Below, piece after piece: positions 7,534-30,774 of a stretch of DNA of 32,599 nucleotides. Numbering within the stretch: position 1 is the stretch's first letter; every line of letters begins with the position of its first letter. Source of the DNA: an uncultured Pseudomonadota bacterium (lineage in GTDB: Bacteria > Pseudomonadota > Gammaproteobacteria > Burkholderiales > Thiobacillaceae); assembly GCA_903918705.1 (NCBI GenBank), contig CAIXFP010000343.1:1-32599 (forward strand), given 5' to 3'. Under the pieces are notes generated by a model. The model did not search any database and had not been told where the DNA came from. It worked only from the letters and a program-made list of their open reading frames with translations. The position numbers and the translations under genes were made by a program.

Positions 7534-8241
7534 ATGCCCCCCCCCCAGAACCATCTACTGGCCGCCCTGCCTCCTGACGAATACGCGCGCCTGTCGCAGC
7601 ACCTGGTACTGGTGCCCATGGCGCTCGGCCAATCGCTCTGCGAGCCCGGCATGAAGATGCACCACGTCTACTTCCCCACCACCAGCATCATTTCCCTGCT
7701 CTACGTGATGGAGGATGGCGCCTCCGCCGAGATCGCCGTGGTCGGCTTCGAGGGGCTGGTCGGCGTCTCCCTGTTCATGGGTGGTGAAACCACCACCAGC
7801 CGGGCCGTGGTGCAAAGCGCCGGCCACGCCTACCGCCTGCGCGGGCCGCTGCTGAAGGAGGAGTTCTTCCGCGCCGGGCCGATGCAGCGCCTCCTGCTGC
7901 GCTACACCCAATCCTTGCTGACCCAGATGGCGCAGACCGCGGTGTGCAACCGCCACCATTCCCTGGGCCAGCAACTCTGCCGCTGGCTGCTGCTGAGCCT
8001 GGACCGCCTGCCCGGCAACGAATTGGTCATGACCCAGGAACTGATCGCCAACATGCTCGGGGTACGCCGCGAAGGCGTCACCGAAGCCGCCGGCCACCTA
8101 CAGAAAGAGGGCCTGATCGAGTATCACCGCGGCCACATCACGGTCCTCGACCGCAAGGGATTGGAAGCGCGGGTGTGCGAATGCTATTCGGTGGTGAAGA
8201 AGGAAAACGACCGCCTGCTACCGGAGTTCCTGGGACACTGA
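7534..8241 (+). CDS. Crp/Fnr-family transcriptional regulator (paralogue 1)
   Basis: 235 aa from the ATG at 7534. This start was chosen by alignment with paralogue 3 (MPPPQNHLLAALP vs MPTPSSPSQNHLLAALP). cNMP-binding-like beta-roll (HVYFPTTSIISL..EIAVVGFEGLVG) and C-terminal HTH (MTQELIANMLGVRREGVTEAAGHLQKEGLI). Confidence 0.88.
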   Translation: MPPPQNHLLAALPPDEYARLSQHLVLVPMALGQSLCEPGMKMHHVYFPTTSIISLLYVMEDGASAEIAVVGFEGLVGVSLFMGGETTTSRAVVQSAGHAYRLRGPLLKEEFFRAGPMQRLLLRYTQSLLTQMAQTAVCNRHHSLGQQLCRWLLLSLDRLPGNELVMTQELIANMLGVRREGVTEAAGHLQKEGLIEYHRGHITVLDRKGLEARVCECYSVVKKENDRLLPEFLGH

Positions 8242-8312
8242 TCCGGGCGCGGGGTTGCCGCCCCCTGTAACAAGGCGCTCAAGAAACACCCATTCACCCT
8301 CTGATTTTGTAG

Positions 8313-8376
8313 GGTGGATAAGCGTAGCGCATCCACCTATGACGGCGGTGATGGTGGATGAGCCGCGCTTATCCAC
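8313..8376. repeat. Pair of inverted REP-type hairpins (BIME-like)
   Basis: The two hairpins are ggtggat-aagcgtagcgc-atccacc (8313-8337) and ggtggatgagc-cgc-gcttatccac (8353-8376). The second is roughly the reverse complement of the first. They lie just downstream of crp paralogue 1. Confidence 0.7.
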
Positions 8377-8475
8377 TAGTTCAGGGCGAACGGATTCATT
8401 CAGCCTCTCCCTTGGCGCGGCAGTTCCAGTGGGGACTTCCACTACCACGACACAACCCACCGAAATCCGGCGCTA

Positions 8476-8491
8476 TGGACGTTGCCGCACA
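8476..8491 (-). promoter_or_regulatory. Weaker match to the box (box 8)
   Basis: The reverse complement reads TGTGC-GGCAAC-GTCCA, close to box 4 (TGTGC-GCCAGC-GTCCA). It lies 145-160 nt upstream of the collagen-like lipoprotein gene but in the opposite orientation to it. Confidence 0.25.
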
Positions 8492-8635
8492 GACTCCGCA
8501 GGCCATACGGCCCAACCTGCCGAACAGGGTCGTGCCGCGTCCACACGATCTCGCCGCTCAGACTAACCACTGTCCAGACGAGCCCCACAGGCGCACAGAC
8601 TGTCGAAATCAGTTCAAATAATCCAAGGAATCACC

Positions 8636-9556
8636 ATGAGAAATTCAATCTTGTCGAACAAGATGTTGAGAAGTCCGTTGCTGCTGGCCGTGGTCGCCAC
8701 GTTCGCAATTGCAGGCTGCAGCACAACCGGTGCACCGTTGATCAGCTATGTCGGCCCTCCCGGCGCCGATGGGCCGATGGGTCCGGCTGGCGAACGCGGC
8801 CCGACTGGCGCCAACGGCGCTCCCGGCATGGTCATGGCCGGTCCCGCCGGTGAAACCGGCCCCGCCGGTCCCGCCGGTGTGGCCGGCCCGATTGGAGCCA
8901 CAGGACCCGCCGGGGTGATGGTGGTGGGCCGTGCCGGCGCAGTCGGCCGCGCCGGGCCCATGGGTCCGCAAGGCGCCATGGGGGATAGCGGCGCCCAGGG
9001 CGTAAGCAACGCGGGCCCCGCCGGCCCGATGGGTCTCGCTGGTCCCTCCGGCATTCAAGGTGTCGTCGGCAGCATCGGCGCGCAAGGGCCCACCACGGTC
9101 GGCCCGACCGGACCCACCGGCCGCACCGGCCCCGCCGGCGACCAGGGTTTGACCGGATATACTGGCATCCAGGGCAGTCCCGAAATGCTTGGCGTCGCCG
9201 GCCCGGTTGGCCGTACCGGCGCCGCGGGCGTGCAAGGCCCGATCGGCCCGACCGGTGCCCAGGGCTCGCCGGCTATCCTGTATGGCAGCTGGAGTTCCTA
9301 CTGGATCTACAACTTCAACGGCTACAACAACGCGATGCAGCGCGCCGATGACGGCAAGTCGAGCCAGATCGCCAACTACTTGGATCGGAACCCGTCGCGC
9401 CAGATCGGCCTGGATGGTGGCGACTCACGTAACGTGTCCACCGTGCGCGATGCCTTGATCGCCGCGGGTGTGCCTCCCGGCAAGATCCAGACGGGTGCCT
9501 TCGGCGACCCGCAACTCAGGCGCGATGATCGGGTGGCGGTGCTGCTCAACAATTAA
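8636..9556 (+). CDS. Lipoprotein with a collagen-like G-X-Y triple-helix repeat region and a degenerate OmpA_C-like C-terminal domain
   Basis: 306 aa. AAGGAA lies upstream. Lipobox FAIAGC. About 190 aa of interrupted GXY repeats (GPPGADGPMGPAGERGPTGANGAPG...GPIGPTGAQGSP). The C-terminal ~90 aa (IANYLDRNPSRQIGLDGG..VRDALIAAGVPPGKIQTGAFGDP..DRVAVLL) follow the OmpA_C fold pattern. Confidence 0.85.
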   Translation: MRNSILSNKMLRSPLLLAVVATFAIAGCSTTGAPLISYVGPPGADGPMGPAGERGPTGANGAPGMVMAGPAGETGPAGPAGVAGPIGATGPAGVMVVGRAGAVGRAGPMGPQGAMGDSGAQGVSNAGPAGPMGLAGPSGIQGVVGSIGAQGPTTVGPTGPTGRTGPAGDQGLTGYTGIQGSPEMLGVAGPVGRTGAAGVQGPIGPTGAQGSPAILYGSWSSYWIYNFNGYNNAMQRADDGKSSQIANYLDRNPSRQIGLDGGDSRNVSTVRDALIAAGVPPGKIQTGAFGDPQLRRDDRVAVLLNN

Positions 9557-9578
9557 GCCCACTGTCGTGTAGATCAGG

Positions 9579-9661: not shown

Positions 9662-9736
9662 GATGGACCCATTGGCAGCCGTTTTGGAAATAGTTACAGG
9701 CTCTGAGCCAAATCCGCGACTTCGCCCCGTGAGCTA

Positions 9737-9752
9737 TGTGCGCCAGCGTCCA
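9737..9752 (+). promoter_or_regulatory. Candidate Crp/Fnr-type operator (box 4)
   Basis: TA-TGTGC-GCCAGC-GTCCA-GAC. The left 13 nt are identical to box 2 and the right half is degenerate. It lies 118-133 nt upstream of the crp paralogue 2 GTG. Confidence 0.35.
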
Positions 9753-9869
9753 GACAAGTGCGGCATTCCTCCCCATGCTTAATGTTGCCCAGCCCGGGGG
9801 GGCGCTCCGGGTTCGCATGCGACATTTCCCCTATGCCGCCTGCCGGGTTTCCCCACCCGGAGAGTTCAC

Positions 9870-10577
9870 GTGCCGCGCACCCAGTCAGTCCCCGTCGCCA
9901 ATCGCCTCCTTGCCGCCCTGCCGCGCAAGGATCGCCTGCGCTTCGTGGCGGGTTGCGCGGATGTCGAACTGGTGTTCGCCGAGGTGCTGGCCGAACCGGG
10001 CGAGCGCATCCGCCACGTCTACTTCCCCACCCACAGCTTCATCTCGCTGACCACGCCTATCGACGGCCATGTCGCCCTCGAGGTGGGCATGGTCGGCGAC
10101 GAAGGCATGCTCGGCATTTCGCTCCTGCTCGGCGTCGATGTTTCACCCCTGCATGCCCTGGTGCAGGGTGCGGGCCCGGCGTTACGCATTAATGCGGCGC
10201 CCTTCCGCCGCGAGTTGGAACAGAGTCCGGCCCTACGGCGCCTGTTGCAACGTTACCTCTATGTGCTGATGACCCAACTCGCGCAAACCGCCGCCTGCAC
10301 CCGCTACCACTTGGTGGAGGCGCGCCTCGCCCGCTGGCTGCTGATGACGGGGGATCGGGCCCATGCGGACGAGTTCCGCCTCACCCATGAATTCCTGGCC
10401 TATATGCTGGGAGTGCGTCGCGTCGGCATCACCAAGGCCGCTTCCGCGCTGCAACAACGGGGGCTGATCCACTATCACCGCGGCGATATCACGCTACTCG
10501 ACCGTGCTGGTCTGGAATCGCACTCCTGCAGCTGCTACGCGGCAGACAAGGCCACCTATGCCCGGGTGCTGGGCTAG
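9870..10577 (+). CDS. Crp/Fnr-family transcriptional regulator (paralogue 2, divergent)
   Basis: 235 aa. GTG start with GGAGAG 5-6 nt upstream. Same architecture as paralogues 1 and 3 ([29 protein letters not shown]; [32 protein letters not shown]), but clearly less similar to them than they are to each other. Confidence 0.88.
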
Positions 10578-10595
10578 CGAACTGGCCGCAGGCGA

Positions 10596-11156: not shown

Positions 11157-11254
11157 GGTGGCTCTCCGTGTGGCCACCCGGCCCCAGGCCGGGTATTCCG
11201 GCAAATTCTGCGCGTAAGCGCCCCTGGCGAGCGGAACAATATTTCTGTCTGCTT

Positions 11255-11270
11255 GGTTCGCCAGCGCACA
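11255..11270 (+). promoter_or_regulatory. Candidate Crp/Fnr-type operator (box 5)
   Basis: GGTTC-GCCAGC-GCACA-GAT in the divergent DUF1003/lmo0937 region, 67-82 nt upstream of the lmo0937-type ATG. It is preceded by tctgtctgct, which resembles the outer flank of boxes 1 and 2. Confidence 0.4.
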
Positions 11271-11336
11271 GATCGTGGCGGGAAATAAGCAGATCGTCGA
11301 AATTGTCGAAACATTCACATACCCACGGAGTTTGCA

Positions 11337-11483
11337 ATGCTCGAAACCATCGCGGTTGTCTTGATTATCTTCTGGGTGCTCGGCCTGGTTTCGTCCTACA
11401 CCATGGGCGGGTTTATCCACATTCTCTTGGTCATCGCGGTCGTGATGCTGTTGATGCGGGTCATCCAGGGACGCCGCCTGTGA
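11337..11483 (+). CDS. lmo0937-family small membrane protein (48 aa), absent from the ORF track
   Basis: MLETIAVVLIIFWVLGLVSSYTMGGFIHILLVIAVVMLLMRVIQGRRL. GGAG lies 6 nt upstream. The two-TM pattern ending in ..GRR is typical of this family. It was translated directly from the sequence. Confidence 0.75.
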   Translation: MLETIAVVLIIFWVLGLVSSYTMGGFIHILLVIAVVMLLMRVIQGRRL

Positions 11484-11524: not shown

Positions 11525-12355
11525 ATGAGAACACTCAAGTTCCTGGCAAGCGTTTCATTCGGAATGGTTGCCGCGTGTTTTAGTATCCATCCGGCAATGG
11601 CCATACCCCTACTCGGGTCGGCACAGAATTTCACCGTGCTCGCCGCGTCGACAGTGACCAATACCGGTGCGACCACCATTCTGGGTGATATTGGCTTATT
11701 TCCAGGTACGTCGATTACGGGCCTGGGAACCCTTTCACTCATGGGAACGGTATACCAGACGGACACGGTTGCACATCAGGCCGAGATTGACGCACTGGCC
11801 GCCTACAACATGCTTGCCAACCTGCCGGTCACCCACAATCTGAGTGGCCTGGATTTGGGCACCGTGGGCACGCTGCAACCGGGCGTCTATCAATTTGATT
11901 CGTCGGCGCAACTGACCGGGACGCTCACCCTCGATTTCGGTTACGACGCCAATGCCCTGTTCGTATTTCTTATCGGCAGCACGCTGACGACCGCAAGCGA
12001 TGCCAAAGTCTACGTGAACAATGGCGGCGGCAATGACGGCGTGTACTGGCAGGTTGGCAGTTCCGCAACCATGGGCAGCAATACACTGTTTGCCGGGAAC
12101 ATTCTCGCGGAACAAAGCATCACCCTGAATACCGGCGCGGAAATTCTCTGCGGCAGGAGCATCGCGCTGAATGCCGCGGTGACGCTGGATGGCAACACCC
12201 TCGCCAACAATTGCAACGGTAGTACCAATGGTGATTTCGGCAGCGCCGGTTTCAGTGGTGATGGTCATGGCGGCAATGTTCCGGAGCCATCCATTCTGTC
12301 GCTTCTTGGCATTGGATTGTCGGGAATCGGCATCAGCCGCCGGTGGCATGCGTGA
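11525..12355 (+). CDS. Ice-binding-like (DUF3494) family protein with a PEP-CTERM sorting signal
   Basis: 276 aa. GGAGGA lies 6 nt upstream. Signal peptide present. DUF3494 pattern: AQNFTVLAASTVTNTGATTILGDIGLFPGTSITG..LQPGVYQFDSSAQLTGTLTLD..NALFVFLIGSTLTTAS..VYWQVGSSATMGS..FAGNILAEQSITL. C-terminus VPEPSILSLLGIGLSGIGISRR. Confidence 0.88.
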   Translation: MRTLKFLASVSFGMVAACFSIHPAMAIPLLGSAQNFTVLAASTVTNTGATTILGDIGLFPGTSITGLGTLSLMGTVYQTDTVAHQAEIDALAAYNMLANLPVTHNLSGLDLGTVGTLQPGVYQFDSSAQLTGTLTLDFGYDANALFVFLIGSTLTTASDAKVYVNNGGGNDGVYWQVGSSATMGSNTLFAGNILAEQSITLNTGAEILCGRSIALNAAVTLDGNTLANNCNGSTNGDFGSAGFSGDGHGGNVPEPSILSLLGIGLSGIGISRRWHA

Positions 12356-14974: not shown

Positions 14975-15228
14975 GACCCGCCTCGGTCAGATATGTCCGG
15001 AATGAGCGGGTAGACATCGGCGCTGGCTAAAGCCTGATTGCACTTGCTCCAGGTGTGGCTTCCGAAGATTCCGGACTCATTTGAATAGGTTTGCCCCATG
15101 GCCCTGGTCATGACGGCCGACGAGGAGTCTGTTATCCGAAATTAGGCACTAATTGCCAAAGTAGGGGTTGAAAAATTCAATCTCATGAGGCTTGTTCGAG
15201 AAAGCCTTTTATGGTTTGTAAATTTATA

Positions 15229-20400: not shown

Positions 20401-23400
20401 CGCAGCACCACCTGGGCGTGGGTCCAGGCCAGTTCGAACACCCGGTCGGCCAGGCGGCGGTCGCGATATTTCTCCACCAGGGCCAGGGCGGCCGCGCGGC
20501 TGTCGCCGATACCGTAGACCAGGTCGATGCTGGCGGTCTGCTCCGGTTCCAGGGTGATGCTGCAGCGGATGGCCAGCATCGGGTCGAGCACCGAACCCTG
20601 GCTGCCGGAGAGCACGCCGTCCGCGTCCAGCGCCTGGGGTGCCGCGACATCACGGCCGCGGCCGAGAAAGCGGGCGCGATCGGTTTCGTAGGAAATCGCG
20701 TCGATGTCCGCATCATGGACGGCCAGCAGATGGAACATCCAGGGCGTCGCCTCGTCCCGGGAGCGGGGGCGGCGGGTACACAGCAGGGCCTGCTGCGGCG
20801 CGACGATCTCGGTCTGCACGAACAGGTTGCTGAACGCTGGATGCAGGGCGTCGGCGGCGGCGGGAGCCAGCACCACCTCGGCGTAGGTGGTGAGTTCGAT
20901 GGTGCGGCGGCTGGCACCGCGGTTGGTGATGCGGATCCGGCGCAGTTCGATGTCTTCTTCCGGGGAGACGACGATGTCGGTGTGGGTGTCGAAATCGAAC
21001 GCCTGGCCACGATCGCGGCGGCGGAATTCGGCCCGCCCTTCCGAGAAGATGGCCTCGTAGTGTTCCGTTTGGCGCAGGGTGGGCTGGTGGGCGGTGGACC
21101 AGGTGGTGCCGCTTTCCGTATCGCGAAGGTAAGCGAAACTGCCCCAGGCATCGCGGGTGCCGTCCTCGCGCCAACGGGTGACGGCCAGGTCGCGCCAGCG
21201 GCTGTAGCCGCCGCCGGCGTGGCTGATCATGACGTGATAGCGGCCGTTGGAGAGCAACTGCACTTCCGGGGTCGCGCTGTCGGGCTGGGTCAACACCCGG
21301 ATCGGCATTTCCGGACTGTCGACGCCGGCCTGGCTGGCGTTCAGTTCGGCGTTGTGGGTATGGAAGGCCGTGGCACGGGGGATGCGTTCCTGCAGCAACA
21401 ACAGAGTGGCCTGCAACAGCGAGTCGGCCGCGAAGCGTTTCTGCATCGGCCGGTCCAGCAGCAGATAGGCCAGGGCCAGCAGGCTCATGCCCTGGTGGTG
21501 CGCCATGTAGGAGCGCACCAGGGCGTGGGATTCGCCGCGCCGCTGCCGCGCCGGGGTGTAGTCGATGGCCTCGTAGAAGCCGAACCAGCCTTCCGCGCCC
21601 AGGGCGGCGAGGCGCTCCAGGTTCTCGCAGGCGGCCTCCGGCGCCACCATCAGGGCCATCACCGTGGCATAGGGCGCCACCACCAGGTCCTCGGCGAGGC
21701 CGCGCTTCAGCCCCAGGCCGGGCACGCCGAAGGCGCGGTACTGGTAGTTGAGTTGCACGTCCACCGCGTTGTAGCCGGATTCCGACATGCCCCAGGGCAG
21801 GCCGCGCTGCTGGCCGTACTCGATCTGCCGCGCCACCGCCGAGCGCATGGTCTGGTCGAGCAGGGTGTGGTCGTAGTTGGGCATCACCAGTTGCGGCATC
21901 AGGTACTCGAACATGGAGCCGCTCCAGGACAGCAGGATCGGCTCGCCGCCGCTGCGGGTGAGCAGGCGCCCCAGGGCGAACCAGCTCTCCTGGGGCAACT
22001 GGCCCTGGGCGATGGCGACGAACACGGTGAGGCGCGCTTCCGAGGCGAGGAGATCGTAGTAACTGCTGTCGCGCCGCCGCTCGTCCACGTTGTAGCCGAT
22101 GGCCAGCAGGCGCGCGGCCTTGTCGTAGAGGAAGCCGTATTCCATCTCGGCCAGTTCGCCGGCCTGCCGGGCGCGTTGCCGGAGGGCGGCGATGCGCACC
22201 CGGGCGCGCTCGCTGCCCAGTTCGATACGGCGGTCGAGTTCGCCCCGCCAGGCATCCCCGGCCGGTGTGGCGCCAAGGCTGGCGGGGCCGGGCGCCAATT
22301 CGGCCAGGGCGCGCAGGGTCGGGATGACGTCGATTTCGGGGGGCGCTGCGAGGCCGTCCGGGGCCGCTGGCATGCTGAGCCAGGGCGCGAGAAAGACCAG
22401 CTCGTCCCGGACCGCCCGGCATTGCTGCGCCAGGGCACGCAGCCACCAGCACGCCTGGCTCTCGGGCACCTGCCCCAGGTTCTCGTGCATGGCCTCGGCG
22501 GCCTGGCTCAACTGCTCGAGCAGGCGCCAAACCGCCGCAAGGGTGGTGGGCCGGAGCGCGTTCGCCGCAGCGTACTGGGTGCGGAATTGCGCCAGTTGGG
22601 CTGGGAATGTGCCACCCCCGGTGGCACCCGCGGCTTCCTCCAGTATCCCCAGGATGTCGCCCAGGCCGTCCAGCCAGCGCGGTGCCAGGATGGGCCGGTC
22701 GATGAGGGAGGTGAGACCGGGACGCAGGGTCAGCAGGTGGCCCGCCAGGTTGCCGCTGTCCACGGTCGAGACATAGGCCGGGTGCAGCGGCGCCAGCGTC
22801 TGGGTGTCGTACCAGTTGTAGAAATGGCCGTGGTACCGGTCCAGGCCCGCCATGGTGTCCAGGGTGTGGCCGCAGCGCTCGAGCAGCTGCTCGGCGGTGA
22901 GGTAGCCGAAGTCGTGGGCGGACAGGTAGGCCAGCAACGCCAGGCCCATGTTGGTGGGGGACGTGCGGTGGGCCAGGGCGCCGGTGCGATATTCCTGATA
23001 GTTGTCCGGGGGCAGCCAGTGGTCCTCCGGGCCGACGAAGGTCTCGAAGAAGGCCCAGGTCTTGCGTGCGATGCGGCCGAGGAACCGGCTCTGGTCTCCG
23101 CTCAGGCGAGCTTCGCGGCGAGCCAGCGGGCGGCTCAACCACCAGGCGACGGCGGGGGACACCAGCCACAGGATCAGGATGGGGGCGGCCACAGGCAACG
23201 CGGCCGGCACCACCGCCGCCAGGTAAATCGCGGTGGCGGCCGCCAGCAGCGGGGCGAACCCCATGGTGCGGAAGGCGGCGGCCAGGTCGTTGCGGCTGGC
23301 CAGTTCCTGGTCGCCGGAAGGATTCCATTCCAGCAGCCGTTGGTGCGATACCCCCAGTCGCCAGAGGGTGCGCAGGATCGCATCCAGGCTGTAACCCGCC

Positions 23401-26075
23401 TCGTGGGGCAGGGTCACCAGGGCAAACAGCGCCTGGATGCCGCGCAAGCCGGTGGCGTGGGCGATGGCGGCCAGGTGCTGGCCCAATCGCATCTCGTCCG
23501 GTTTGCGCAGGAGATCGTGCAGGCTGGCCAGCAGCGGCGGAATCAGGAGCACGCCGAGCAGCGCCAGGGTCCATGGCAGGGGCGCGGTGGACGCGGTCCA
23601 GCCCAGCACCAGGAGCAGGGTCAACGCCGCCGGCACCAGGCTGCGGCGCAGGTTGTCGAACAGTTTCCAGCGCGCCAGCCAGGACAGCGGATTCCGGCCG
23701 CGGCGCCGGTCGGGGCCGCGCAGCCACGGCAGCAGCCAGCCGATGAGCTGCCAATCGCCGCGGATCCAGCGGTAGCGGCGGTTCACGTCGGCACCGTAGC
23801 GGGCCGGGTATTCCTCGTACAACTGCACGTCGCTCAACAGCCCGGCGCGCACGTAACAGCCCTCCAGCAGGTCGTGGCTGAGGATGCGGTTCTCGCGGAA
23901 ACGCCCCTGCAGCGCCTGCTCGAAGGCGGCCACGTCGTAGATGCCCTTGCCGATGAAGGAGCCTTCCCCGAAGGCGTCCTGGTACACGTCGGAGACGGCG
24001 CGGGTGTATGGGTCGATGCCCGGCTCGCCGCTGTTCAGGCGGGCATAACGCGACAGGGTGGCGCCGGGCAGGCTCACGCTCACCCGCGGCTGCAGGATGC
24101 CGTAGCCGGCCACCACCCGGCCTTGGGACGCGTCATAACGCGGTCGATTGAGGGGGTGTGCCATGGTGCCGACGCATTCCCGGGCGGCGTCGCGCGGCAA
24201 CTGGGTGTCGGTGTCCAGGGTGATGACGTAGCTCACCCCGACCAGCAGCGCGGTGTCGCCCACCAGCAGGGAGAATCCGTCACGTTTGCCTTCGCGCAGC
24301 AGGGCGTTGAGGTCGGCCAGCTTGCCGCGCTTGCGCTCGTAGCCCATCCAAAGCCGGTCATGGGGGTTCCAGCGGCGCGGCCGATGCAGCAGGAAAAAGG
24401 CGTCGTGGCCGTCTACCCCATAGCGCGTGTTCAGGGCTTCGATGCGCGCCCGGGCCCGTTCCAGCAGCGCTATGTCCTCGGGCAAGGTTTCCGCGGCCGC
24501 GTCGCGCAGGTCGGTCAACAGGGCGAAAAACAGGTTCGCATCGCGGTTGGCCAGGAAGCGGACTTCCAGCGCCTCGGCCAGGCTGTCGATGTTGCGCGGG
24601 CTGGCGAGCATGGTGGGGACCACCACCAGGGTGCGGAATTCGGCCGGGATGCCGGCGGAATAATCCATGCACGGCAGGGCATGAGGCGACGCCAGCAGGG
24701 TGGCCAGCCAGTTCACCAGGGCGGAGGCGAGCTGGCCGCTGGCCACCAGGGCGAGCAGTCCCAGGGGGAGCAGCGTCCAATGCGCCCAGCCGGCTCCACG
24801 CACTTCGGCCAGGAAAGCGGCGGCCAGGAGCGTGGTGAGCAGGGTGATCGCGCCCAGGTACAGGGGCAGTGGCGAGTCCCCTGCGCCGCGGCGCAGGCGC
24901 GCGGCAAGGGGCGGACGGGCGCCCAGGGCCCGTTCCAACTGGAGGCGTCCGCGGTCGATCAGGTAGTAGCCGACGTGGGCGGTCCGGTCGCCCACGCCGT
25001 TGTTGTCCGCGCCGGACCGGGCCAGTTCGATGGCGCGGGCGGCTACCGTGTCCTCGTTGAACAGGCTCGACTTCGCCACCTGTTCGACCACGTGGCGGTA
25101 GTGGTCGCGGCTGGCGAAATCCATGCCGGCATAGGCCGAACCCGGGTCCGTGCGCAGGGTGCGTTCCACCAGGCTCAAGGATTCGACGAACTCGCGCCAG
25201 TCCATGGTGCCCAGGAAGCGCAGGCTGCCGATGCTGTTGCTGATGGAGACCTGGTCGGCGGCCTGGTGCTGGTTGCCCATGCGCACCGACTGTTCGATGC
25301 TCGCCCCCGATTCGGCCAGTTGCTGTTCGATCCAGGTCAATGGCAGGGCCAGGGTGGGGCCTTGCCCCTGGAGCCGGCGCGCCAGTTCCGAGACGAACGG
25401 CGGCGACATGGGCGGCTGCGAGCGGGCCATGTCGGCGATGACCAGGATCAGATTCTTCGGGGCCTGGCGGGCGACTTCGCTCAACTTGTCCGCCCAGTAG
25501 ACCGCCAGGTCCCGATCCGCGCGGCCATGGGCGATGCGCACCGCGACCCGGCGCAGGTTCTCGATCAGGGCCAGGCGCAGCATGATCGGAATGGCCCACA
25601 ACTCGCCCAGGCGCAGCGGGCTGACCGTCTGGTAGGCGGCGACGAAGCGGCTCAGGCTGTCCGGGTCGACCCGGCCGTCGCCATGGGCGATGGTTTCCAG
25701 GGCGATGTCGTAGACCCGCGGCAACCCATGCGACGCACCCCCGGCAAGGCTGGGCAATTCCCGGCTGTAGCCCTTGGGCAGGTGGCGCCGGGCGGTGCGA
25801 ATCTGTTCCTCCACCAGGTAGAAGTTGTCCAGCAGCCATTCCCCGGCCGGCGTGATGCGCTGTTTCGCCGTCACCGCCCTGGTCAACTGGTCGCAGGTCT
25901 CGACCAGTACCGCCTCGTTGGCCGCCAGCCGCGCCAGCAGCGGGTCCGGCACCCGGCGCGGCGCCAGGCGGTGGGTGCCGGCGAGGCGCACGCCGTGCTG
26001 GGCCATCTGGTCGCTGCTGAACAACTCCGCCCGTAGCGGCGGCGCCTCGACGCAGTCTTTGCCCGGCGCGCTCAT
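17436..26075 (-). CDS. ndvB: Cyclic beta-1,2-glucan synthase (NdvB/ChvB/Cgs type; GT84 + cyclisation region + GH94 phosphorylase-like domain)
   Basis: About 2879 aa. TM segments flank a glycosyltransferase region (ITLDTDTQLPRDAA, RRYRWIRGDWQ). A C-terminal GH94-like region follows (GGAFGFRDQLQD, MGSGDWNDGMN, IWAAMAYA). The start was set at MSAPGKD..PLRAELFSSDQMAQHG (ATG at 26075). An ATG at 26207 is an alternative but adds 44 non-conserved-looking residues. Confidence 0.93.
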   Translation of the reverse strand: MSAPGKDCVEAPPLRAELFSSDQMAQHGVRLAGTHRLAPRRVPDPLLARLAANEAVLVETCDQLTRAVTAKQRITPAGEWLLDNFYLVEEQIRTARRHLPKGYSRELPSLAGGASHGLPRVYDIALETIAHGDGRVDPDSLSRFVAAYQTVSPLRLGELWAIPIMLRLALIENLRRVAVRIAHGRADRDLAVYWADKLSEVARQAPKNLILVIADMARSQPPMSPPFVSELARRLQGQGPTLALPLTWIEQQLAESGASIEQSVRMGNQHQAADQVSISNSIGSLRFLGTMDWREFVESLSLVERTLRTDPGSAYAGMDFASRDHYRHVVEQVAKSSLFNEDTVAARAIELARSGADNNGVGDRTAHVGYYLIDRGRLQLERALGARPPLAARLRRGAGDSPLPLYLGAITLLTTLLAAAFLAEVRGAGWAHWTLLPLGLLALVASGQLASALVNWLATLLASPHALPCMDYSAGIPAEFRTLVVVPTMLASPRNIDSLAEALEVRFLANRDANLFFALLTDLRDAAAETLPEDIALLERARARIEALNTRYGVDGHDAFFLLHRPRRWNPHDRLWMGYERKRGKLADLNALLREGKRDGFSLLVGDTALLVGVSYVITLDTDTQLPRDAARECVGTMAHPLNRPRYDASQGRVVAGYGILQPRVSVSLPGATLSRYARLNSGEPGIDPYTRAVSDVYQDAFGEGSFIGKGIYDVAAFEQALQGRFRENRILSHDLLEGCYVRAGLLSDVQLYEEYPARYGADVNRRYRWIRGDWQLIGWLLPWLRGPDRRRGRNPLSWLARWKLFDNLRRSLVPAALTLLLVLGWTASTAPLPWTLALLGVLLIPPLLASLHDLLRKPDEMRLGQHLAAIAHATGLRGIQALFALVTLPHEAGYSLDAILRTLWRLGVSHQRLLEWNPSGDQELASRNDLAAAFRTMGFAPLLAAATAIYLAAVVPAALPVAAPILILWLVSPAVAWWLSRPLARREARLSGDQSRFLGRIARKTWAFFETFVGPEDHWLPPDNYQEYRTGALAHRTSPTNMGLALLAYLSAHDFGYLTAEQLLERCGHTLDTMAGLDRYHGHFYNWYDTQTLAPLHPAYVSTVDSGNLAGHLLTLRPGLTSLIDRPILAPRWLDGLGDILGILEEAAGATGGGTFPAQLAQFRTQYAAANALRPTTLAAVWRLLEQLSQAAEAMHENLGQVPESQACWWLRALAQQCRAVRDELVFLAPWLSMPAAPDGLAAPPEIDVIPTLRALAELAPGPASLGATPAGDAWRGELDRRIELGSERARVRIAALRQRARQAGELAEMEYGFLYDKAARLLAIGYNVDERRRDSSYYDLLASEARLTVFVAIAQGQLPQESWFALGRLLTRSGGEPILLSWSGSMFEYLMPQLVMPNYDHTLLDQTMRSAVARQIEYGQQRGLPWGMSESGYNAVDVQLNYQYRAFGVPGLGLKRGLAEDLVVAPYATVMALMVAPEAACENLERLAALGAEGWFGFYEAIDYTPARQRRGESHALVRSYMAHHQGMSLLALAYLLLDRPMQKRFAADSLLQATLLLLQERIPRATAFHTHNAELNASQAGVDSPEMPIRVLTQPDSATPEVQLLSNGRYHVMISHAGGGYSRWRDLAVTRWREDGTRDAWGSFAYLRDTESGTTWSTAHQPTLRQTEHYEAIFSEGRAEFRRRDRGQAFDFDTHTDIVVSPEEDIELRRIRITNRGASRRTIELTTYAEVVLAPAAADALHPAFSNLFVQTEIVAPQQALLCTRRPRSRDEATPWMFHLLAVHDADIDAISYETDRARFLGRGRDVAAPQALDADGVLSGSQGSVLDPMLAIRCSITLEPEQTASIDLVYGIGDSRAAALALVEKYRDRRLADRVFELAWTHAQVVLRQINASEADAQLYGRLANSVIYAHAALRADAGVLLRNRRGQSGLWGYAISGDLPIVLVRIADLANVELVRQLIQAHAYWRLKGLAVDLVIWNEDRAGYRQTLQDQILGLVAVGLETQVIDRPGGIFIRSAEQISEEDRILFQTVARIILSDGRGTLAEQLTRPDALEPRVPRLAPGKSLRPEAAAAFALPVRDLILGNGLGGFTPDGREYVITTTPDLLTPAPWVNVLANAQFGSVVSESGQAYTWSENAHEFRLTPWLNDPVSDPSGEAFYLRDEETGQFWSPTPLPRRGATPYVCRHGFGYSVFEHAESGIQSELWVYVALDAAVKFSVLKVRNGSGRPRRLSATGYVEWVLGDLRPKSAMYLVTEVDPYSGALYARNPYNGEFPGRVAFFDVDVADRTGTCDRAEFIGRNGSLTNPAALRRTHLSGKSGSGLDPCGALQVGFDLADGEEREIVFRLGVGGTPGGEDANHLAQRTRGGEAARQALEDVWHYWNHTLGAVQVETPDQSLNVLSNGWLLYQTLACRMWARSGYYQSGGAFGFRDQLQDAMALLHSEPGLLRAQLLLCAGRQFHEGDVQHWWHPPAGRGVRTHCSDDYLWLALATCRYVLGSGDSGVLEEAVPFLEGRLLSPDDDDYFDLPGRSTTSESLYLHCVRALRHGLRYGEHGLPLMGSGDWNDGMNRVGVGGKGESVWLGFFLHEVLRQFAVLARGHGDPESADFCLAEAAHLGENLEQHAWDGAWYRRAWFDDGTPLGSAGNVECWIDSIAQSWSVLSGVADRERARRAMQSLDEHLVRRDAGLIQLLDPPFDQTDMDPGYIKGYVPGVRENGGQYTHAAIWAAMAYAAQGDSRRAWELTTLINPANHAKSPDAIAVYKVEPYVMAADVYAVAPHTGRGGWTWYTGSAGWMYRLILESLLGLRLEVDKLHVAPCLPGHWPGFTVHYRYRETVYHIAVVQGGAVGLTLDGVALEGQAIPLLDDRHEHTVMVKV

Positions 26076-26101
26076 GCCGCCCGGGTACGCCTTGGAAAAA
26101 A

Positions 26102-26118
26102 GTGTCCGAATCCGACAC
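26102..26118. promoter_or_regulatory. Near-perfect 17-bp palindrome in the glucan synthase leader
   Basis: GTGTC-CGAATCC-GACAC lies 27-43 nt upstream of the ATG at 26075. A related TGTCACGAATCGAC lies at 26642-26655, just upstream of the divergent gene's ATG (26676). Confidence 0.3.
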
Positions 26119-26231
26119 CAATGACCGATGAGCTTCGTTTTGCCCCCTTTCCAAGCTGGTCCCAAATTGTTCTCCCGACCGCTCAAGGGGCGGTGGTTGC
26201 GACACACGGCGGGACGCCAGTGTGTGGATGA

Positions 26232-26400
26232 CTAGCAGCCTGTCGGACTTCGGTCGTCGATAGCGAGAAAGGGCCCCAGCGAGGCCAGTTTTTGCCGGAT
26301 TCGCCGCCGCATAGTCGAACTATGGGGCAAGAAGCCGGTGAAAAATGGACCGCTGCGGTCGTTTCGCAGCCGACGATTCCAAAGTCCGACAGGCTGCTAG
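26232..26400. repeat. 169-bp MITE-like / highly structured element with perfect 19-bp terminal inverted repeats
   Basis: CTAGCAGCCTGTCGGACTT (26232-26250) is the exact reverse complement of AAGTCCGACAGGCTGCTAG (26382-26400). Internal extra pairings: tcgtcg/cgacga, catagt-cga-actatg and gctgcg-gtcgttt-cgcagc. No ORF is present. Confidence 0.6.
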
Positions 26401-26675
26401 GATCGGAGTGCCCCGGGCGGTTGGACCCGGACGCCCGGGAGCCATTCCCGGGACAGCGCTGAACAGGTTTGGGCGGCGGTTCCACTCGACCTTGGTTGCC
26501 TACGCCCGCATGCAGGTTACAGGTGATTGGCGGCGGGGTTGCGCCGGCGGTCGACAGGTAACCGGTTGCGATAATACTTGAGTAATTATGTCGGACAAGG
26601 TCTATAAGGTTCTGGTGTGATGCGGCAATCTTGCCGGCATCTGTCACGAATCGACCTTTTTCAAAGGCAGGCAAC

Positions 26676-27092
26676 ATGCGCAACCTCCATATCGACTACC
26701 AAGGTGACGCCCTCAATTTCCAGAGCGCCAGTCTCCTCGCCAAAGGCCTGGCCCGGGACAACCAGATGCAGGACCCCACCATCATGGCCTGGCACCAGAG
26801 CGGCGAAGAAGCCGCGACGCCGTTCTACGACGGCGCCGATCCGGATTCCTGGTGGGCCAAGTACGGCGCCGGTAACGGTGGCAAGCTGGAGGTCTGCATT
26901 GGTGACGACTACCAGTTCATCCTGATGGACGCACGCGGCTACGAGACCCTGGGCGAGATGCCTCTGCGCAATCGCTCCGATGGCCACGGCAAGGAATATC
27001 TCTGCTACACGCCGATGCTCGGCAAGGCCACTGACAAGCCCACGGCGGAAGCCTGCATCGAACTGGACGGCTGGGCGGCGGACCAATACTGA
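26676..27092 (+). CDS. Hypothetical protein (138 aa); N-terminal half resembles AF1514-type small proteins (from memory, unverified)
   Basis: ATG at 26676: MRNLHIDYQGDALNFQSASLLAKGLA..DPTIMAWHQ..WWAKYGAGNGGKLEVCIGDDYQFILMD. Divergent from the glucan synthase gene. A hairpin, atcggcgc-N11-gcgccgat, follows the stop. Confidence 0.6.
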   Translation: MRNLHIDYQGDALNFQSASLLAKGLARDNQMQDPTIMAWHQSGEEAATPFYDGADPDSWWAKYGAGNGGKLEVCIGDDYQFILMDARGYETLGEMPLRNRSDGHGKEYLCYTPMLGKATDKPTAEACIELDGWAADQY

Positions 27093-27156
27093 GTGCCGTG
27101 ATCGGCGCGCGCCCAGGCGGCGCCGATATCCTTCAACCTGAATAGAGGAAATCATC

Positions 27157-27288
27157 ATGATCAAAGGGCAACACTCCAATAAGGAAGCGAAAAAACATTC
27201 CCTTCTGACCACCAAGGAAAAGAAGGCGGCCAAGCAGGCCAGGAAACATGCCGGCGACCCGGTCCCCTTGATCGTCAAGGGCTCCTGA
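27157..27288 (+). CDS. 43-aa lysine-rich small protein (paralogue B), absent from the ORF track
   Basis: MIKGQHSNKEAKKHSLLTTKEKKAAKQARKHAGDPVPLIVKGS. GAGGAA lies upstream. Paralogue of 14843-14974. A hairpin, cgggagc-N11-gctcccg (27307-27331), follows. Confidence 0.75.
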   Translation: MIKGQHSNKEAKKHSLLTTKEKKAAKQARKHAGDPVPLIVKGS

Positions 27289-27362
27289 GCAGGGGTTCCG
27301 CGCCGTCGGGAGCAGGTCTGCACCGCTCCCGCCTAATGGTCATGCAGGGTTCGGCCTGCGTC

Positions 27363-27378
27363 TGTGTGCCAGCGTACA
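27363..27378 (+). promoter_or_regulatory. Candidate Crp/Fnr-type operator (box 6)
   Basis: TGTGT-GCCAGC-GTACA-GAC, within the extended imperfect palindrome TCTGTGTGCCAGCGTACAGA. It lies 130-145 nt upstream of the histidine kinase ATG. Confidence 0.45.
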
Positions 27379-27507
27379 GACCAGCGCAGCCCGATCCGCG
27401 ATGCTCAGAACGAGGTTGGCAGCCTGCTTCGGGCGGCCAGATTCGCAGTTCACCGGTTCGGCAAACCGGTCCACCGACTTCGTTCCAGGTTTTCACGGAT
27501 AACACGC

Positions 27508-29211
27508 ATGCCCATCACAGTCCCCTTCCCCGCGCCTGCCGACGTTATCGGCAATGGGGAGAGCGCCTCAGAAGCCCTGCGCCAGGAGGGGTTGCTGAAG
27601 ACCGGAGCCTTGCAGACCGCGATTCTCACCAGCGCCAATTTCTCCATCATCGCCACCGACGAGAAAGGCATCATCCAGTTGTTCAACGTCGGCGCCGAGC
27701 GCCTGCTGGGCTACCAGGCCGCCGAGGTGGTGAACAAGATCAGCCCCAGCGACATGCACGATCCAGTGGAAGTGAGGGCGCGCGCCCAGGCCCTCAGCCT
27801 GGAACTCGACACCCCCATCGCGCCGGGCTTCGAGGCCCTGGCCTTCAAGGCTTCGCGTGGAATCGAGGATGTTTATCAACTCACCAAGATTCGCAAGGAT
27901 GGCAGCCGCTTCCCAGCCATCGTGTCGATCACGGCATTGCGCGACGACTACGGCGAAATCATCGGCTATCTGCTGATCGGCACCGACAACTCGGTGCGCA
28001 AGCAGGTCGAGGAAAAACTGAACGAGGCCCTGGCTGCGGCGGAGAAGGCCAACCGGGCGAAGACCGATTTCCTCTCCGGCATGAGCCACGAATTGCGCAC
28101 CCCGCTCAATGCCATCCTGGGCTTCGCCCAGCTCATGGAATCCGGAACGCCGCATCCCACGCCGCCGCAGCAGCGCAACCTGGACCAGATCCTCAAGGCG
28201 GGCTGGTATCTGCTGGAACTGATCAACGAAATCCTCGACCTGGCGCTGATCGAGTCGGGCAAGGTGACCTTGTCCCAGGAAGCGGTCTCCCTGGCAGAGG
28301 TCATGCTCGAGTGCCGCGCCATGATCGAGCCCCAGGCCCAGCAGCGCGGCATCGGCATGACCTTCCCGCACTTCGAGACCCCCTATTTCGTGAAGGCCGA
28401 CCGCACCCGAGTCAAACAGGTGCTGATCAACCTGCTGTTCAACGCCATCAAGTACAACCGGCCGGGCGGCACGGTGGCGGTGGAGTACAGCATCAGCCCG
28501 CCGAGTTCACTGCGCATCAGCGTGCGCGACACCGGGGCTGGCATCCCGCCGGAACTGATCGCGCAGTTGTTCCAGCCGTTCAATCGTCTTGGCCGCGAGG
28601 CCGGCAAGGAAGAGGGGACCGGCATCGGCCTGGTGGTGACCAAGCGGCTGGTGGAGTTGATGGGGGGCGTCATCGGCGTGGATAGCGCCGTCGGCGTGGG
28701 CAGCGTGTTCTGGTTCGAACTGGGCCTGACCAGCGCGCACCACCTCGCGGTCCACGAAGCCGGGCAGGCGGCGCTGGTCCACGCGCCATTGCCGGAGGGC
28801 ACGCCGCTGCGCACCCTGCTCTATGTCGAGGACAACCCGGCCAACCTGGAACTGGTGGAGCAGATCATCGCCCGCCGTCCCGATCTGCGCCTGCTCTCCG
28901 CCGCGGACGGCACGCTCGGCATCGAGTACGCCCGCGCCTACCTGCCCGAGGTGATCCTGATGGACATCAACCTGCCCGGCATCAGCGGGGTGGAAGCCAT
29001 GAAAATCCTGCGCGCCGACCCCCTGACCGCGCATATCCCCATCATCGCGCTCAGCGCCAACGCCCTGGCCCGGGACATCGAGAAGGCCCTGGCGGCCGGC
29101 TTTTTCAACTACCTGACCAAGCCGATCAAGGTCAACGCCTTCATGGAGGCGCTGGACGTGGCGATGCAGTTCGCCAAGGCCGCCCGCACGGCCGCCAAGG
29201 AGACGTCATGA
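27508..29211 (+). CDS. Soluble hybrid sensor histidine kinase (PAS - HisKA - HATPase_c - REC)
   Basis: 567 aa from the ATG at 27508; no TM segment. PAS (IIATDEKGIIQLFNVGAERLLGY). H-box SHELRTPLNAILGF. N-box LINLLFNAIKYN. G-boxes VRDTGAGIP and GTGIGLVV. Receiver (LLYVEDNP..ILMDINLPGISG..LTKP). Confidence 0.9.
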   Translation: MPITVPFPAPADVIGNGESASEALRQEGLLKTGALQTAILTSANFSIIATDEKGIIQLFNVGAERLLGYQAAEVVNKISPSDMHDPVEVRARAQALSLELDTPIAPGFEALAFKASRGIEDVYQLTKIRKDGSRFPAIVSITALRDDYGEIIGYLLIGTDNSVRKQVEEKLNEALAAAEKANRAKTDFLSGMSHELRTPLNAILGFAQLMESGTPHPTPPQQRNLDQILKAGWYLLELINEILDLALIESGKVTLSQEAVSLAEVMLECRAMIEPQAQQRGIGMTFPHFETPYFVKADRTRVKQVLINLLFNAIKYNRPGGTVAVEYSISPPSSLRISVRDTGAGIPPELIAQLFQPFNRLGREAGKEEGTGIGLVVTKRLVELMGGVIGVDSAVGVGSVFWFELGLTSAHHLAVHEAGQAALVHAPLPEGTPLRTLLYVEDNPANLELVEQIIARRPDLRLLSAADGTLGIEYARAYLPEVILMDINLPGISGVEAMKILRADPLTAHIPIIALSANALARDIEKALAAGFFNYLTKPIKVNAFMEALDVAMQFAKAARTAAKETS

Positions 29212-30032
29212 AATTGCGCGAAGCGGAAATCCTCGGTGCCAGCATCCTGATCGTCGACGATCAGGAGTCCAACGTCATGCTGCTGGAGCAAGTCCTGCGC
29301 GACGCAGGCTATACCCATTTCGCCTCGACCATGAACCCGCGCGAGGTGTTCGCGCTGCACCGGAAGAACCAATACGACCTGATCCTGCTCGACCTGCAGA
29401 TGCCCGGGCTGGATGGCTTCCAGGTCATGGAAGGGCTCAAGACCAACGACGCCGACAGCTACCTGCCGGTCTTGGTGATCACCGCCCAACCCGGCCACAA
29501 GCTGCGCGCCCTGCAAGCCGGGGCGAAGGATTTCATCAGCAAGCCGTTCGACCTCGTGGAAGCCCGGACCCGCATCCACAACATGCTGGAAGTGCGCCTG
29601 CTGTACAAGAAACTCGAGCAGTACAACCAGGAACTGGAACAGGCGGTGAAGGAACGCACCGCCGAACTGCGGGAAAGCGAGGCGCGCTATCGCAGCCTCA
29701 CCGAACTGGCTTCCGACTGGTACTGGGAGCAGGACGAGAACATGAACTTCACCAAGGTGTCCGGCCCGGTCCTGGAGATGCTGGGAATCCAGGTCGAACC
29801 CCTGGCGGGGACTGCCGGCGCGGTCCAGGCCGCCGGCTGGGATGAGGCGGAGCGGGCGGTGCTCCAGGCCACCATCGCGGCGCGCCAGCCGTTCCTGGAT
29901 TTCCTGTTCAGCCGCGTCAATGCCGATGGTTCGCAACAACAGTACCGGGTGAGCGGCGAGCCGATGTTCACCCAGTCCTGTCGCTTCATCGGCTATCGCG
30001 GGATAGGCGTGGAAATCACCAGCCCGAAATAG
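29208..30032 (+). CDS. Response regulator: REC - coiled coil - PAS (no DNA-binding or enzymatic output)
   Basis: 274 aa. ATGA overlap with the kinase stop and AAGGAG upstream. ILIVDDQ, LILLDLQMPGLDG, VLVITAQ, FISKPF. C-terminal PAS-like RYRSLTELASDWYWEQDENMNFT... Confidence 0.88.
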   Translation: MKLREAEILGASILIVDDQESNVMLLEQVLRDAGYTHFASTMNPREVFALHRKNQYDLILLDLQMPGLDGFQVMEGLKTNDADSYLPVLVITAQPGHKLRALQAGAKDFISKPFDLVEARTRIHNMLEVRLLYKKLEQYNQELEQAVKERTAELRESEARYRSLTELASDWYWEQDENMNFTKVSGPVLEMLGIQVEPLAGTAGAVQAAGWDEAERAVLQATIAARQPFLDFLFSRVNADGSQQQYRVSGEPMFTQSCRFIGYRGIGVEITSPK

Positions 30033-30042
30033 AGGCCAGGCG

Positions 30043-30774
30043 ATGCCCACCCCGTCCAGTCCGAGCCAGAACCATCTGCTCGCCGCCCTGCCCACGGCGG
30101 ATTTCGAACCCCTCGCCGCGCATCTGGAGCGGGTCCATTTGCCCCTCGGCGAAATGCTCTACGAGCCCGGCGGCCAGATGCGCCACGCCTACTTCCCCAC
30201 CACCGCCATCGTCTCGCTGCACTACGTCATGGCGGACGGCGCCTCGGCGGAATCGGCCGGGGTGGGCAACGAGGGCGTGGTCGGCATTTCCCTGTTCATG
30301 GGCGGGGATACCACTTCCAGCTCGGCGGTGGTGCAGACCGCGGGCGATGCCTACCGCCTGGAGCGCGGCAGGCTGCTGCAGGAATTTCAGCGCGGCGGCC
30401 TGATGCAGCGTTTGCTGCTGCGCTACACCCAGGCACTGATGACCCAGATGTCCCATACCGCGACCTGCAACCGGCATCATTCGGTGGAACAGCAACTATG
30501 CCGCTGGCTGTTGCTCACGCTGGACCGCATGGCGTCGAACGAACTGGTCATGACCCAGGAACTGATCGCCAGCATGCTCGGGGTGCGCCGCGAAGGCATC
30601 ACCGAAGCCGCCGGAAGACTGCAGCGCGCCGGGTTCATCAGTTACCGCCGCGGCCACATCGCCGTGCTCGACCGGGCCGGCCTGGAAACCCGGGTGTGTG
30701 AGTGCTACGAGGTGGTGAAAAAGGAACTGAGCCGCCTGCTGTCCGACGTGCGCTATCGACAGGACACGGCGTAA
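30043..30774 (+). CDS. Crp/Fnr-family transcriptional regulator (paralogue 3)
   Basis: 243 aa, starting 10 nt after the response-regulator stop. Very similar to paralogue 1 along its whole length (for example LLLRYTQALMTQMSHTATCNRHHSVEQQLCRWLLLTLDR; HTH MTQELIASMLGVRREGITEAAGRLQRAGFI). Confidence 0.9.
   Translation: MPTPSSPSQNHLLAALPTADFEPLAAHLERVHLPLGEMLYEPGGQMRHAYFPTTAIVSLHYVMADGASAESAGVGNEGVVGISLFMGGDTTSSSAVVQTAGDAYRLERGRLLQEFQRGGLMQRLLLRYTQALMTQMSHTATCNRHHSVEQQLCRWLLLTLDRMASNELVMTQELIASMLGVRREGITEAAGRLQRAGFISYRRGHIAVLDRAGLETRVCECYEVVKKELSRLLSDVRYRQDTA

Follow-up and report, generated by a model that had tools for sequence, protein, structure and literature searches.

In this article, I discuss a set of genes from an uncultured bacterium of the Thiobacillaceae, found on a complete 32.6-kb contig (CAIXFP010000343.1) that was analysed over its whole length and is called the window below; the parent metagenome-assembled genome (MAG) measures 3.7 Mb, is 78% complete, probably belongs to a Thiobacillus and has Thiobacillus MAGs as its closest named relatives. 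The window carries an operon for a hybrid histidine kinase with a PAS sensor domain, a response regulator built of a receiver (REC) domain, a coiled coil and a PAS-like domain, and a transcription factor of the Crp/Fnr family (Crp3), together with separate genes for two paralogues of the latter (Crp1 and Crp2). A Crp/Fnr factor, in the textbook view, responds to a small molecule as a one-component regulator, and a two-component system usually has a DNA-binding regulator of its own as its last member. What would be new here is the wiring of a Crp/Fnr activator to a two-component pair without an output domain, and a 22-bp palindrome (the box) through which, judging from sequence, the module appears to activate itself, the two sister crp genes and a group of envelope and stress genes. 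The reading that I favour, at a probability of roughly 0.55 for the whole, is that kinase, regulator and Crp3 would constitute one inherited signalling operon of which Crp3 is the sole DNA-binding part, that Crp3 would activate promoters carrying the box, and that the regulator would gate Crp3. A literature search found no published description of the kinase/REC-PAS/Crp module or of the 22-bp box; StoS/SreKRS of Xanthomonas was considered and is a distinct system.

The operon lies on the plus strand. Its first gene (from the ATG at 27508 to 29211) encodes a kinase that Pfam resolves into PAS-HisKA-HATPase_c-REC and that is soluble, with an N-terminus free of hydrophobic stretches; the second (29208 to 30032) encodes the regulator, in which Pfam and AlphaFold delineate the receiver, a long coiled-coil helix and the PAS-like C-terminal domain (DWYWEQD...GYRGxG); and the third, crp3 (30043 to 30774), is assigned by Pfam, AlphaFold and phylogeny to a Crp/Fnr-family transcription factor dedicated to the module. 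An earlier note on this DNA had placed crp3 at the end of an operon behind such a kinase and regulator, with the two signalling genes overlapping by ATGA and crp3 starting 10 nt past the regulator stop, and all of this holds: the overlap can be read directly at 29208-29211, and the regulator ends with a TAG at 30030-30032 ahead of the crp3 ATG at 30043. Also borne out, by Pfam, is its claim that neither two-component protein possesses a helix-turn-helix (HTH) or a catalytic output beyond the kinase itself. As a two-component pair the proteins carry every expected part, namely the H-box, HATPase_c, the acidic pocket of the receiver, the phospho-accepting Asp, the Thr and the Lys; the HisKA H-box MSHELRTPLN is conserved among kinase orthologues, and the receiver residues DD17-18, D62, T92 and K112 are invariant in 30 regulator orthologues. 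In the proposed mechanism, the kinase PAS would sense a signal that varies between lineages and the kinase would phosphorylate the regulator at D62.

Conservation is spread unevenly over this pair. Of the three module proteins, the regulator shows the highest conservation (80% mean column identity) and its PAS-like domain (29700-30032) is nearly invariant, whereas the sensor PAS of the kinase is variable, its region (27508-28100) aligning poorly among orthologues in which the kinase core and REC are conserved. Some relatives have two to four PAS-like pieces in the kinase, or a split kinase gene. As modelled by AlphaFold (pLDDT 76), the regulator consists of a receiver, a continuous helix over residues 116-168 and an alpha/beta module over 170-274, the C-terminal part following a PAS-like order of strands and helices at pLDDT 50-84; its Foldseek matches are PleD, DivK and WspR-type receiver proteins, in a search that the REC domain dominates. 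Haem or FixL-type sensing by the kinase was rejected as unsupported, the likeness of its PAS to the FixL PAS being marginal (E ~0.002-0.003 across the N-terminal half) and the candidate His (SPSDMHDP) not being conserved among kinase orthologues.

The earlier note called the bond between Crp and phosphorelay hard-wired, and the word is justified by the way in which the three genes are conserved together, as a single unit. In a scan of GTDB with one genome per species, which gave more than 594 loci, the best 80 were examined and 78 were long enough to judge; in 72 of these 78 the crp gene stands directly behind the regulator on the same strand, so that the proposed synteny of kinase, regulator and Crp is upheld across genomes, and the gap between the latter two genes, 10 nt here, is 10-100 nt in relatives. 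Among 60 close relatives, 14 possess a full-length regulator orthologue, nearly always with the kinase before it and a crp3-type gene behind it. Similarly, of 300 genomes sampled evenly across the order, 36 from 29 genera encode the regulator and 108 encode members of the Crp subfamily (one to eight copies each), and a comparison of coordinate lists places at least 29 of 33 regulator orthologues within ~5 kb of a Crp of the family. Two arrangements exist, kinase-regulator-Crp and Crp-kinase-(REC)-regulator. The carriers include the betaproteobacterial Thiobacillus, Accumulibacter, Propionivibrio, Rhodoferax, Methylotenera and Casimicrobiaceae and, beyond the betaproteobacteria, Arenimonas and other Lysobacterales, Steroidobacteraceae, Hydrocarboniphaga and Cellvibrionaceae. 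One cultivable carrier is Rhodoferax antarcticus ANT.BR, whose locus is found in NZ_MSYM01000018.

Furthermore, a maximum-likelihood tree of 119 family members gathers all module-linked Crps into one clade of 84 (support 100/95), within which the two gene orders form sister subclades, and it sets the Crp1-type and Crp2-type proteins apart in clades of their own (support 100/100 for the Crp2 clade). The monophyly of the module-linked Crps argues for a Crp3 lineage dedicated to the kinase-regulator pair, and Crp1 and Crp2 would be older paralogues that often reside a few kb from Crp3; in relatives crp1 adjoins crp3, and in one genome of the same genus all three crp genes fall inside 4.3 kb adjoining the module. 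It could be supposed that the adjacency of kinase, regulator and Crp arose by chance or by a recent local rearrangement and has no function, and the island does rearrange, as seen from crp1 and crp2 lying ~20 kb from crp3 in the window; however, an adjacency kept in hundreds of genomes, in two orders and with a dedicated Crp clade effectively refutes this idea, which I consider barely conceivable.

All three Crp/Fnr paralogues are found, on the plus strand, where the earlier note had placed them: crp1 at 7534 to 8241 (its reading frame is open from a GTG at 7444), crp2 at 9870 to 10577, and crp3. Crp1 is the nearest paralogue of Crp3, and the strong likeness claimed for the two amounts to 69% identity across 229 residues; Crp2 is indeed divergent, at 46% identity to Crp1 and 44% to Crp3, and the translated recognition helices agree with those quoted earlier. 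The C-terminal winged helix-turn-helix HTH_Crp_2 (PF13545) is matched by all three proteins at E-values of 1e-14 to 1e-16, and the cNMP_binding domain (PF00027) is above the cut-off in Crp3, slightly below it in Crp1 and without a match in Crp2. The AlphaFold model of Crp3 (pLDDT 87, pTM 0.83) has the Crp fold with its beta-barrel and long dimerisation helix, and superposes on Mycobacterium tuberculosis (Mtb) CRP, GlxR and FNR with TM-scores of 0.73-0.75, the range widening to 0.65-0.75, at 22% identity or less, when Clp and NtcA are included. None of the named NCBIfam equivalogs (NtcA, FixK, FnrL and others) is reached, the best match, to NtcA, scoring 20-25 bits where the cut-off is 245. The databases hold at least 8000 homologues of this Crp subfamily; the 120 listed carry generic names only, are all near relatives and plain Crp proteins, and include no fusion to a REC or PAS domain. 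A six-frame search of the whole assembly found exactly three members of the subfamily, all within the window, and at 78% completeness additional copies in the genome are possible.

What the Crp proteins themselves might sense was approached through the effector pocket, a check that the earlier note had suggested. In a comparison with the established residues of E. coli CRP, the cassette Glu is kept (GNEG), the Arg-Ser-Ala position reads TSSSA in Crp3, SPLHA in Crp2 and TSRA in Crp1, and the phosphate-binding Arg is absent from Crp3 and Crp2 and shifted by one position in Crp1. A cAMP-binding CRP proper was rejected on these grounds, the phosphate cassette Gly-Glu...Arg-Ser/Thr-Ala being incomplete, and so was an FNR-type oxygen sensor, Crp3 possessing zero Cys in residues 1-140 and no counterpart of the N-terminal cluster of three Cys that FNR combines with a central one. 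The pocket check refines the alternative given in the earlier note, a ligand sensed by the cNMP-like domain: the Arg of cyclic-nucleotide binders is missing or displaced, and an invariant set of three Cys and one His is kept instead. Across the 119 family members, C142, H146, C219 and C221 (Crp3 numbering) never vary and fall into the motifs TAxCxRxH and CxCY; H145 and C153 recur often in the same set, and the invariant columns are likewise present in Crp1 and Crp2. The Crp3 model places C142 and H146 at the hinge and the end of the dimerisation helix, and C219 and C221 at the start of an extra C-terminal helix. This Cys3-His set could be a metal, iron-sulfur or redox site unlike the FNR cluster, and as such it may supply the circuit with a second input (redox or metal). 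In six other loci and genomes, the gene for an orthologue of Crp3 or its family seems to be split in two by a frameshift or is interrupted by an in-frame stop, which may reflect decay or errors of MAG assembly.

The box emerged from 62 stretches of DNA that precede the first module gene, in which gapped palindromes were counted: TGTG-N8-CACA occurs in 12 sequences against 0.2 expected, and the nested patterns GTGC-N6-GCAC and TGCG-N4-CGCA were also detected. With mismatches allowed, these merge into the 22-bp consensus GTcTGTGCGctagCGCACAgAC, which can be written GTcTGTGCG-N4-CGCACAgAC and is typically located 100-280 nt 5' of the start codon. A position weight matrix (PWM) built from the box sites in orthologous upstream regions finds eight sites scoring at least 17 in the window and only 31 scoring at least 14 in the 3.7-Mb assembly, clustered on a handful of contigs. 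In 100 module loci of other genomes, box density is 0.21 per kb, versus 0.006 per kb genome-wide here, and the sites in these loci include 52 before kinase operons and 39 before crp1, crp2 or crp3 genes. A phyletic count of CTGTGCG-N4-CGCACAG with two mismatches in 41 genomes of the same genus gave one to two times the reversed-pattern control, a measure too noisy at 65% GC to set carriers of the module against non-carriers.

The spacing of the box relative to the promoter is regular. A hexamer of the form nAnnnT begins exactly 18 nt past the box in 47 of 61 oriented sites and 19 nt past it in eight more, and every remaining offset is represented by seven sites at most. If the hexamer is taken as the -10 element, the centre of the box falls at -41.5, which is the position of a class II Crp/Fnr activator; on predicted transcription starts, therefore, these promoters have the build of class II Crp/Fnr-dependent promoters, in which a palindrome near -41.5 replaces the -35 element, and a search of the operon region yields no sigma-70 pair of -35 and -10. 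Conservation of the -10 element is limited to A-11 and T-7, hence no particular sigma factor is claimed, and an RpoS-type -10 signature is unsupported.

Crp3, and probably Crp1 and Crp2 too, would bind the palindrome and act as class II activators of promoters without a -35 element. That the Crp family binds the box is very probable, given the type of palindrome, its spacing, its co-travel with crp genes, and a recognition helix that begins with an Arg-Glu pair, as in CRP. In E. coli CRP, the Arg-Glu pair of the recognition helix reads the half-site TGTGA. It could be argued that some other regulator binds the box, that the Crp paralogues use a different site, and that box and crp genes are merely island-mates; the weak -10 elements, with two conserved positions, leave room for other activator families. 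However, a 5-N4-5 palindrome core with extended arms and a centre at -41.5 is the signature geometry of class II Crp/Fnr sites, the box travels with crp genes across ~100 loci of two classes, and no further DNA-binding protein is conserved in the module loci, which together make this an improbable explanation.

The box of the kinase operon (27360 to 27381), GTCTGTGTGCCAGCGTACAGAC, lies 127 nt before the kinase ATG and scores 26.2, the highest value in the 3.7-Mb genome; its predicted -10, GATGCT, begins 18 nt past the box (27400 to 27405, plus strand). The crp1 box (7378 to 7399) has a perfect TGTTCG-N4-CGAACA core and a -10 CACACT at 7418-7423, and the crp2 box (9734 to 9755) a -10 CATGCT at 9774-9779. 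PWM sites furthermore precede an OmpA-like gene (box at 7323 to 7344; gene at 5862-7268 on the minus strand, with its ATG at 7268), a glycine-zipper gene for 70 amino acids (box at 5790 to 5811; gene at 5480-5692, minus strand), a collagen-repeat lipoprotein gene (box at 8473 to 8494; gene at 8636-9556) and a gene for a PEP-CTERM protein (box at 15226 to 15247; gene at 15434-16276). The eighth box (11252 to 11273), for which -10 spacing fits in the plus direction only, stands before a 48-residue membrane micro-protein (11337-11483) and an ice-binding-like PEP-CTERM gene (11525-12355). The micro-protein, encoded on the plus strand with a good ribosome-binding site directly behind the box, is hydrophobic (MLETIAVVLIIFWVLG...) and is probably the first gene of a box-driven unit that it shares with the ice-binding-like gene. 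Seven of the eight window boxes precede a transcription unit with a good ribosome-binding site ~60-120 nt downstream; crp1 is the exception, no candidate ribosome-binding site having been found before its ATG at 7534. The earlier note had allowed that the three regulators might control unrelated genes elsewhere, and against this stands the occurrence of the same box at all three crp genes and their neighbours.

On other contigs of the assembly, box-linked genes encode LTXXQ/Spy-like proteins, an AI-2E transporter, a beta/gamma-crystallin with a glycine zipper, CsbD, SRPBCC, DUF3309 and BON proteins, and PLD-like and lipase-like proteins. The targets of Crp3 would thus include its own operon, in positive feedback, crp1 and crp2, and an envelope and general-stress regulon of OmpA-like, glycine-zipper, collagen-like lipoprotein, PEP-CTERM, CsbD, BON, DUF3309 and LTXXQ genes, extending to the AI-2E transporter and the PLD-like and lipase-like proteins. 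Box-dense stress islets lie outside the window on contigs C576 (eight boxes in 8.2 kb), C698, C688 and C225; C576 holds two copies of CsbD, DUF3309, LTXXQ, the AI-2E transporter and the crystallin/glycine-zipper gene, and C225 apparently has polyphosphate kinase 2, a P-type ATPase and a phosphoketolase, going by N-terminal sequence, beside a boxed PLD-like gene. The idea that the module substitutes for RpoS was rejected: RpoS is encoded in this genome and scores above the curated cut-off in 26 of 31 relatives, and consequently the Crp circuit would add to RpoS and not replace it.

Because the regulator has no output domain, it would most likely gate Crp3 after translation through its highly conserved PAS domain, either as a co-activator or as an anti-activator. 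Direct contact between the two proteins, which I put forward tentatively and at well under even odds, is favoured by the regulator being the most conserved module protein, with a near-invariant PAS-like domain set against a variable kinase sensor, and by Crp3 being its sole fixed neighbour. The earlier interpretation is partly supported overall, in that the coupling is real and conserved. The boldest version of the favoured reading, which seems to me doubtful, is that the phosphorylated REC-PAS protein would set Crp3 by direct binding, as co-activator, anti-activator or partner switch, and so wire a two-component system to a Crp/Fnr-family factor after translation, that the Cys3-His set would add a second signal, and that the module would serve beta- and gammaproteobacteria widely as a master switch, independent of RpoS, for a regulon of envelope and stress genes.

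Several observations weigh against the favoured reading. The Crp subfamily is present in 108 genomes of the order-wide sample versus 36 for the regulator, which makes the regulator dispensable for Crp function generally, and Crp1, Crp2 and many Crps of the family function without an adjacent regulator. The loci in the tree were picked via the regulator, and members of the Crp3 clade that lack a module are invisible to that sample. Binding of the box by Crp is something I infer from co-location, palindrome type and spacing, and the PAS assignment of the regulator C-terminus comes from PAS_9/PAS_8 matches below the cut-off (E ~0.003) and a pattern of secondary structure. In addition, a hybrid kinase normally requires an Hpt protein. 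There is no Hpt domain in the window or the module, hence no multi-step phosphorelay in the locus, and 29 Hpt domains are found elsewhere in the genome, so that the phosphate path could leave the operon.

The main alternative built on such observations treats the kinase and the regulator as cargo of the Crp regulon: Crp3 would sense for itself, through its beta-barrel pocket or the Cys3-His set, and would induce the operon, and the induced pair would signal to targets beyond it, by way of an Hpt protein or to PAS-containing enzymes, or would act back on the kinase as a phosphate sink, as FixT and LovR do. Consistent with this, the operon has a box in front of it, which puts kinase and regulator under box control as well; Crp family members work without the pair in most genomes; C142, H146, C219 and C221 are invariant in the Crp protein; the genome has its 29 Hpt domains outside the module and none within; and several relatives have a stand-alone REC inserted between the two signalling genes, an arrangement like that of branched or sink phosphorelays. 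However, the inheritance of a dedicated Crp clade together with the pair, in two gene orders, exceeds what cargo would lead one to expect, the coupling of the genes is very tight, from the 10-nt gap here to at most 100 nt in relatives, and a regulator PAS far more conserved than the kinase sensor points to a fixed partner, for which the sole fixed neighbour is Crp3. I regard the cargo explanation as rather unlikely. The stand-alone receiver, a gene for ~138 residues that are 70-76% identical to the REC of the regulator, is located between the kinase and REC-PAS genes in ten of the other loci.

The gating of a Crp by a two-component pair, as favoured here, can be set beside several known systems. 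Among the nearest are FixL-FixJ-FixK, with FixT, of rhizobia and Caulobacter, and hFixL-FxkR-FixK of Rhizobium etli, in which, as here, a PAS kinase stands upstream of a Crp/Fnr activator; in these systems, too, the activator binds a class II palindrome with feedback, the kinase is a hybrid in some species, and FixT, a receiver protein without output, is part of the circuit. In contrast, fixK is activated by a DNA-binding FixJ or FxkR, whereas the present module lacks a DNA-binding regulator and its crp gene is predicted to share a transcript with the kinase gene; the module kinases have not kept the haem-ligand His position; and the box, TGTGCG-N4-CGCACA, differs from the FixK/FNR site TTGAT-N4-ATCAA. 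Membership in FixLJ-FixK was therefore rejected, the regulator having no HTH and the PAS His of the kinase not being conserved. In the lxa locus of Burkholderia cenocepacia, BCAM0287 (CRP family), BCAM0288 (response regulator) and BCAM0289 (sensor kinase) are adjacent (PMC3721108), and the resemblance extends to a betaproteobacterial stress and persistence island with neighbouring CRP, regulator and kinase genes and an inverted-repeat motif common to many genes (PMC3721108). However, the lxa motif is the FNR/Anr-like TGA-N6-TCA and the lxa Crp proteins are described as Anr-related (PMC3721108).

Other systems offer precedents for parts of the proposed mechanism. In RpfC-RpfG-Clp of Xanthomonas, a hybrid kinase and a regulator without a DNA-binding domain ultimately control the Crp-family protein Clp, whose structure (3iwz) is one of those matched by the Crp3 model, although RpfG is an HD-GYP enzyme that acts via c-di-GMP bound by Clp, and the module regulator has no catalytic domain. 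The cyanobacterial NtcA-PipX pair, likewise among the matches of Crp3 (NtcA and NtcA-PipX, 2xko and 9guk), is a precedent for a small protein partner that sets the activity of a Crp-family activator, but PipX is not a response regulator and is governed by PII and 2-oxoglutarate, without phosphorylation. Similarly, in RssB-RpoS and PhyR-NepR-EcfG, regulators without a DNA-binding domain steer a general-stress transcription factor by protein contacts, the content of the regulons overlaps that of the module (CsbD, BON and DUF883-type genes), and RssB (3f7a) is among the fold matches of the regulator model; there, however, the targets are sigma factors and the output domains are PP2C-like or sigma-like.

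If the favoured reading is true, a Crp joined to a two-component pair without a DNA-binding regulator would be an added type of wiring in bacterial signalling, and an unnamed Crp subfamily of very large size (more than 8000 protein clusters, with generic names among those listed) would gain a function. The predicted box and its class II geometry make the stress and envelope regulon and its operator directly testable. Moreover, the carriers, such as Thiobacillus, Accumulibacter, Rhodoferax and Methylotenera, are important in wastewater treatment and in the cycling of sulfur, iron, nitrogen and phosphorus, and to our knowledge almost nothing is known of how these organisms regulate stress.

The remaining genes of the window look like an island for stress and envelope functions, and encode a transglutaminase-like protein, HlyIII, CbpA/CbpM, VIT1, the glycine-zipper, OmpA-like and collagen-repeat proteins, DUF1003, the ice-binding-like PEP-CTERM protein, DUF883, a transaldolase, the second PEP-CTERM protein, a PIN toxin and a cyclic beta-1,2-glucan synthase of 2923 residues. 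The glucan synthase, of the NdvB/Cgs type and with Pfam GH94 domains, is encoded on the minus strand (17436 to 26207) and adjoins the module in ~14 of 100 other loci. Direct control of ndvB by the box was rejected in spite of this frequent adjacency: no PWM site scoring at least 8 lies upstream of it in the window, and one of 233 sites precedes ndvB elsewhere. The interval between ndvB and the box of the kinase operon (26208-27359) contains overlapping open reading frames on opposite strands, 26631-27092 (plus) and 26661-27323 (minus); neither has a Pfam match, and no homologue of the minus-strand frame was found in other module loci. A VapBC-like pair on the minus strand (16616-17337), made up of the PIN-domain toxin gene (16616-17008) and a small upstream frame (17008-17337), sits in a low-GC patch within the island. 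Finally, the minus strand at 3165-4417 holds the DnaJ-like CbpA gene and its MerR_2/CbpM-like partner, and the same pair is encoded near the module in one other locus.

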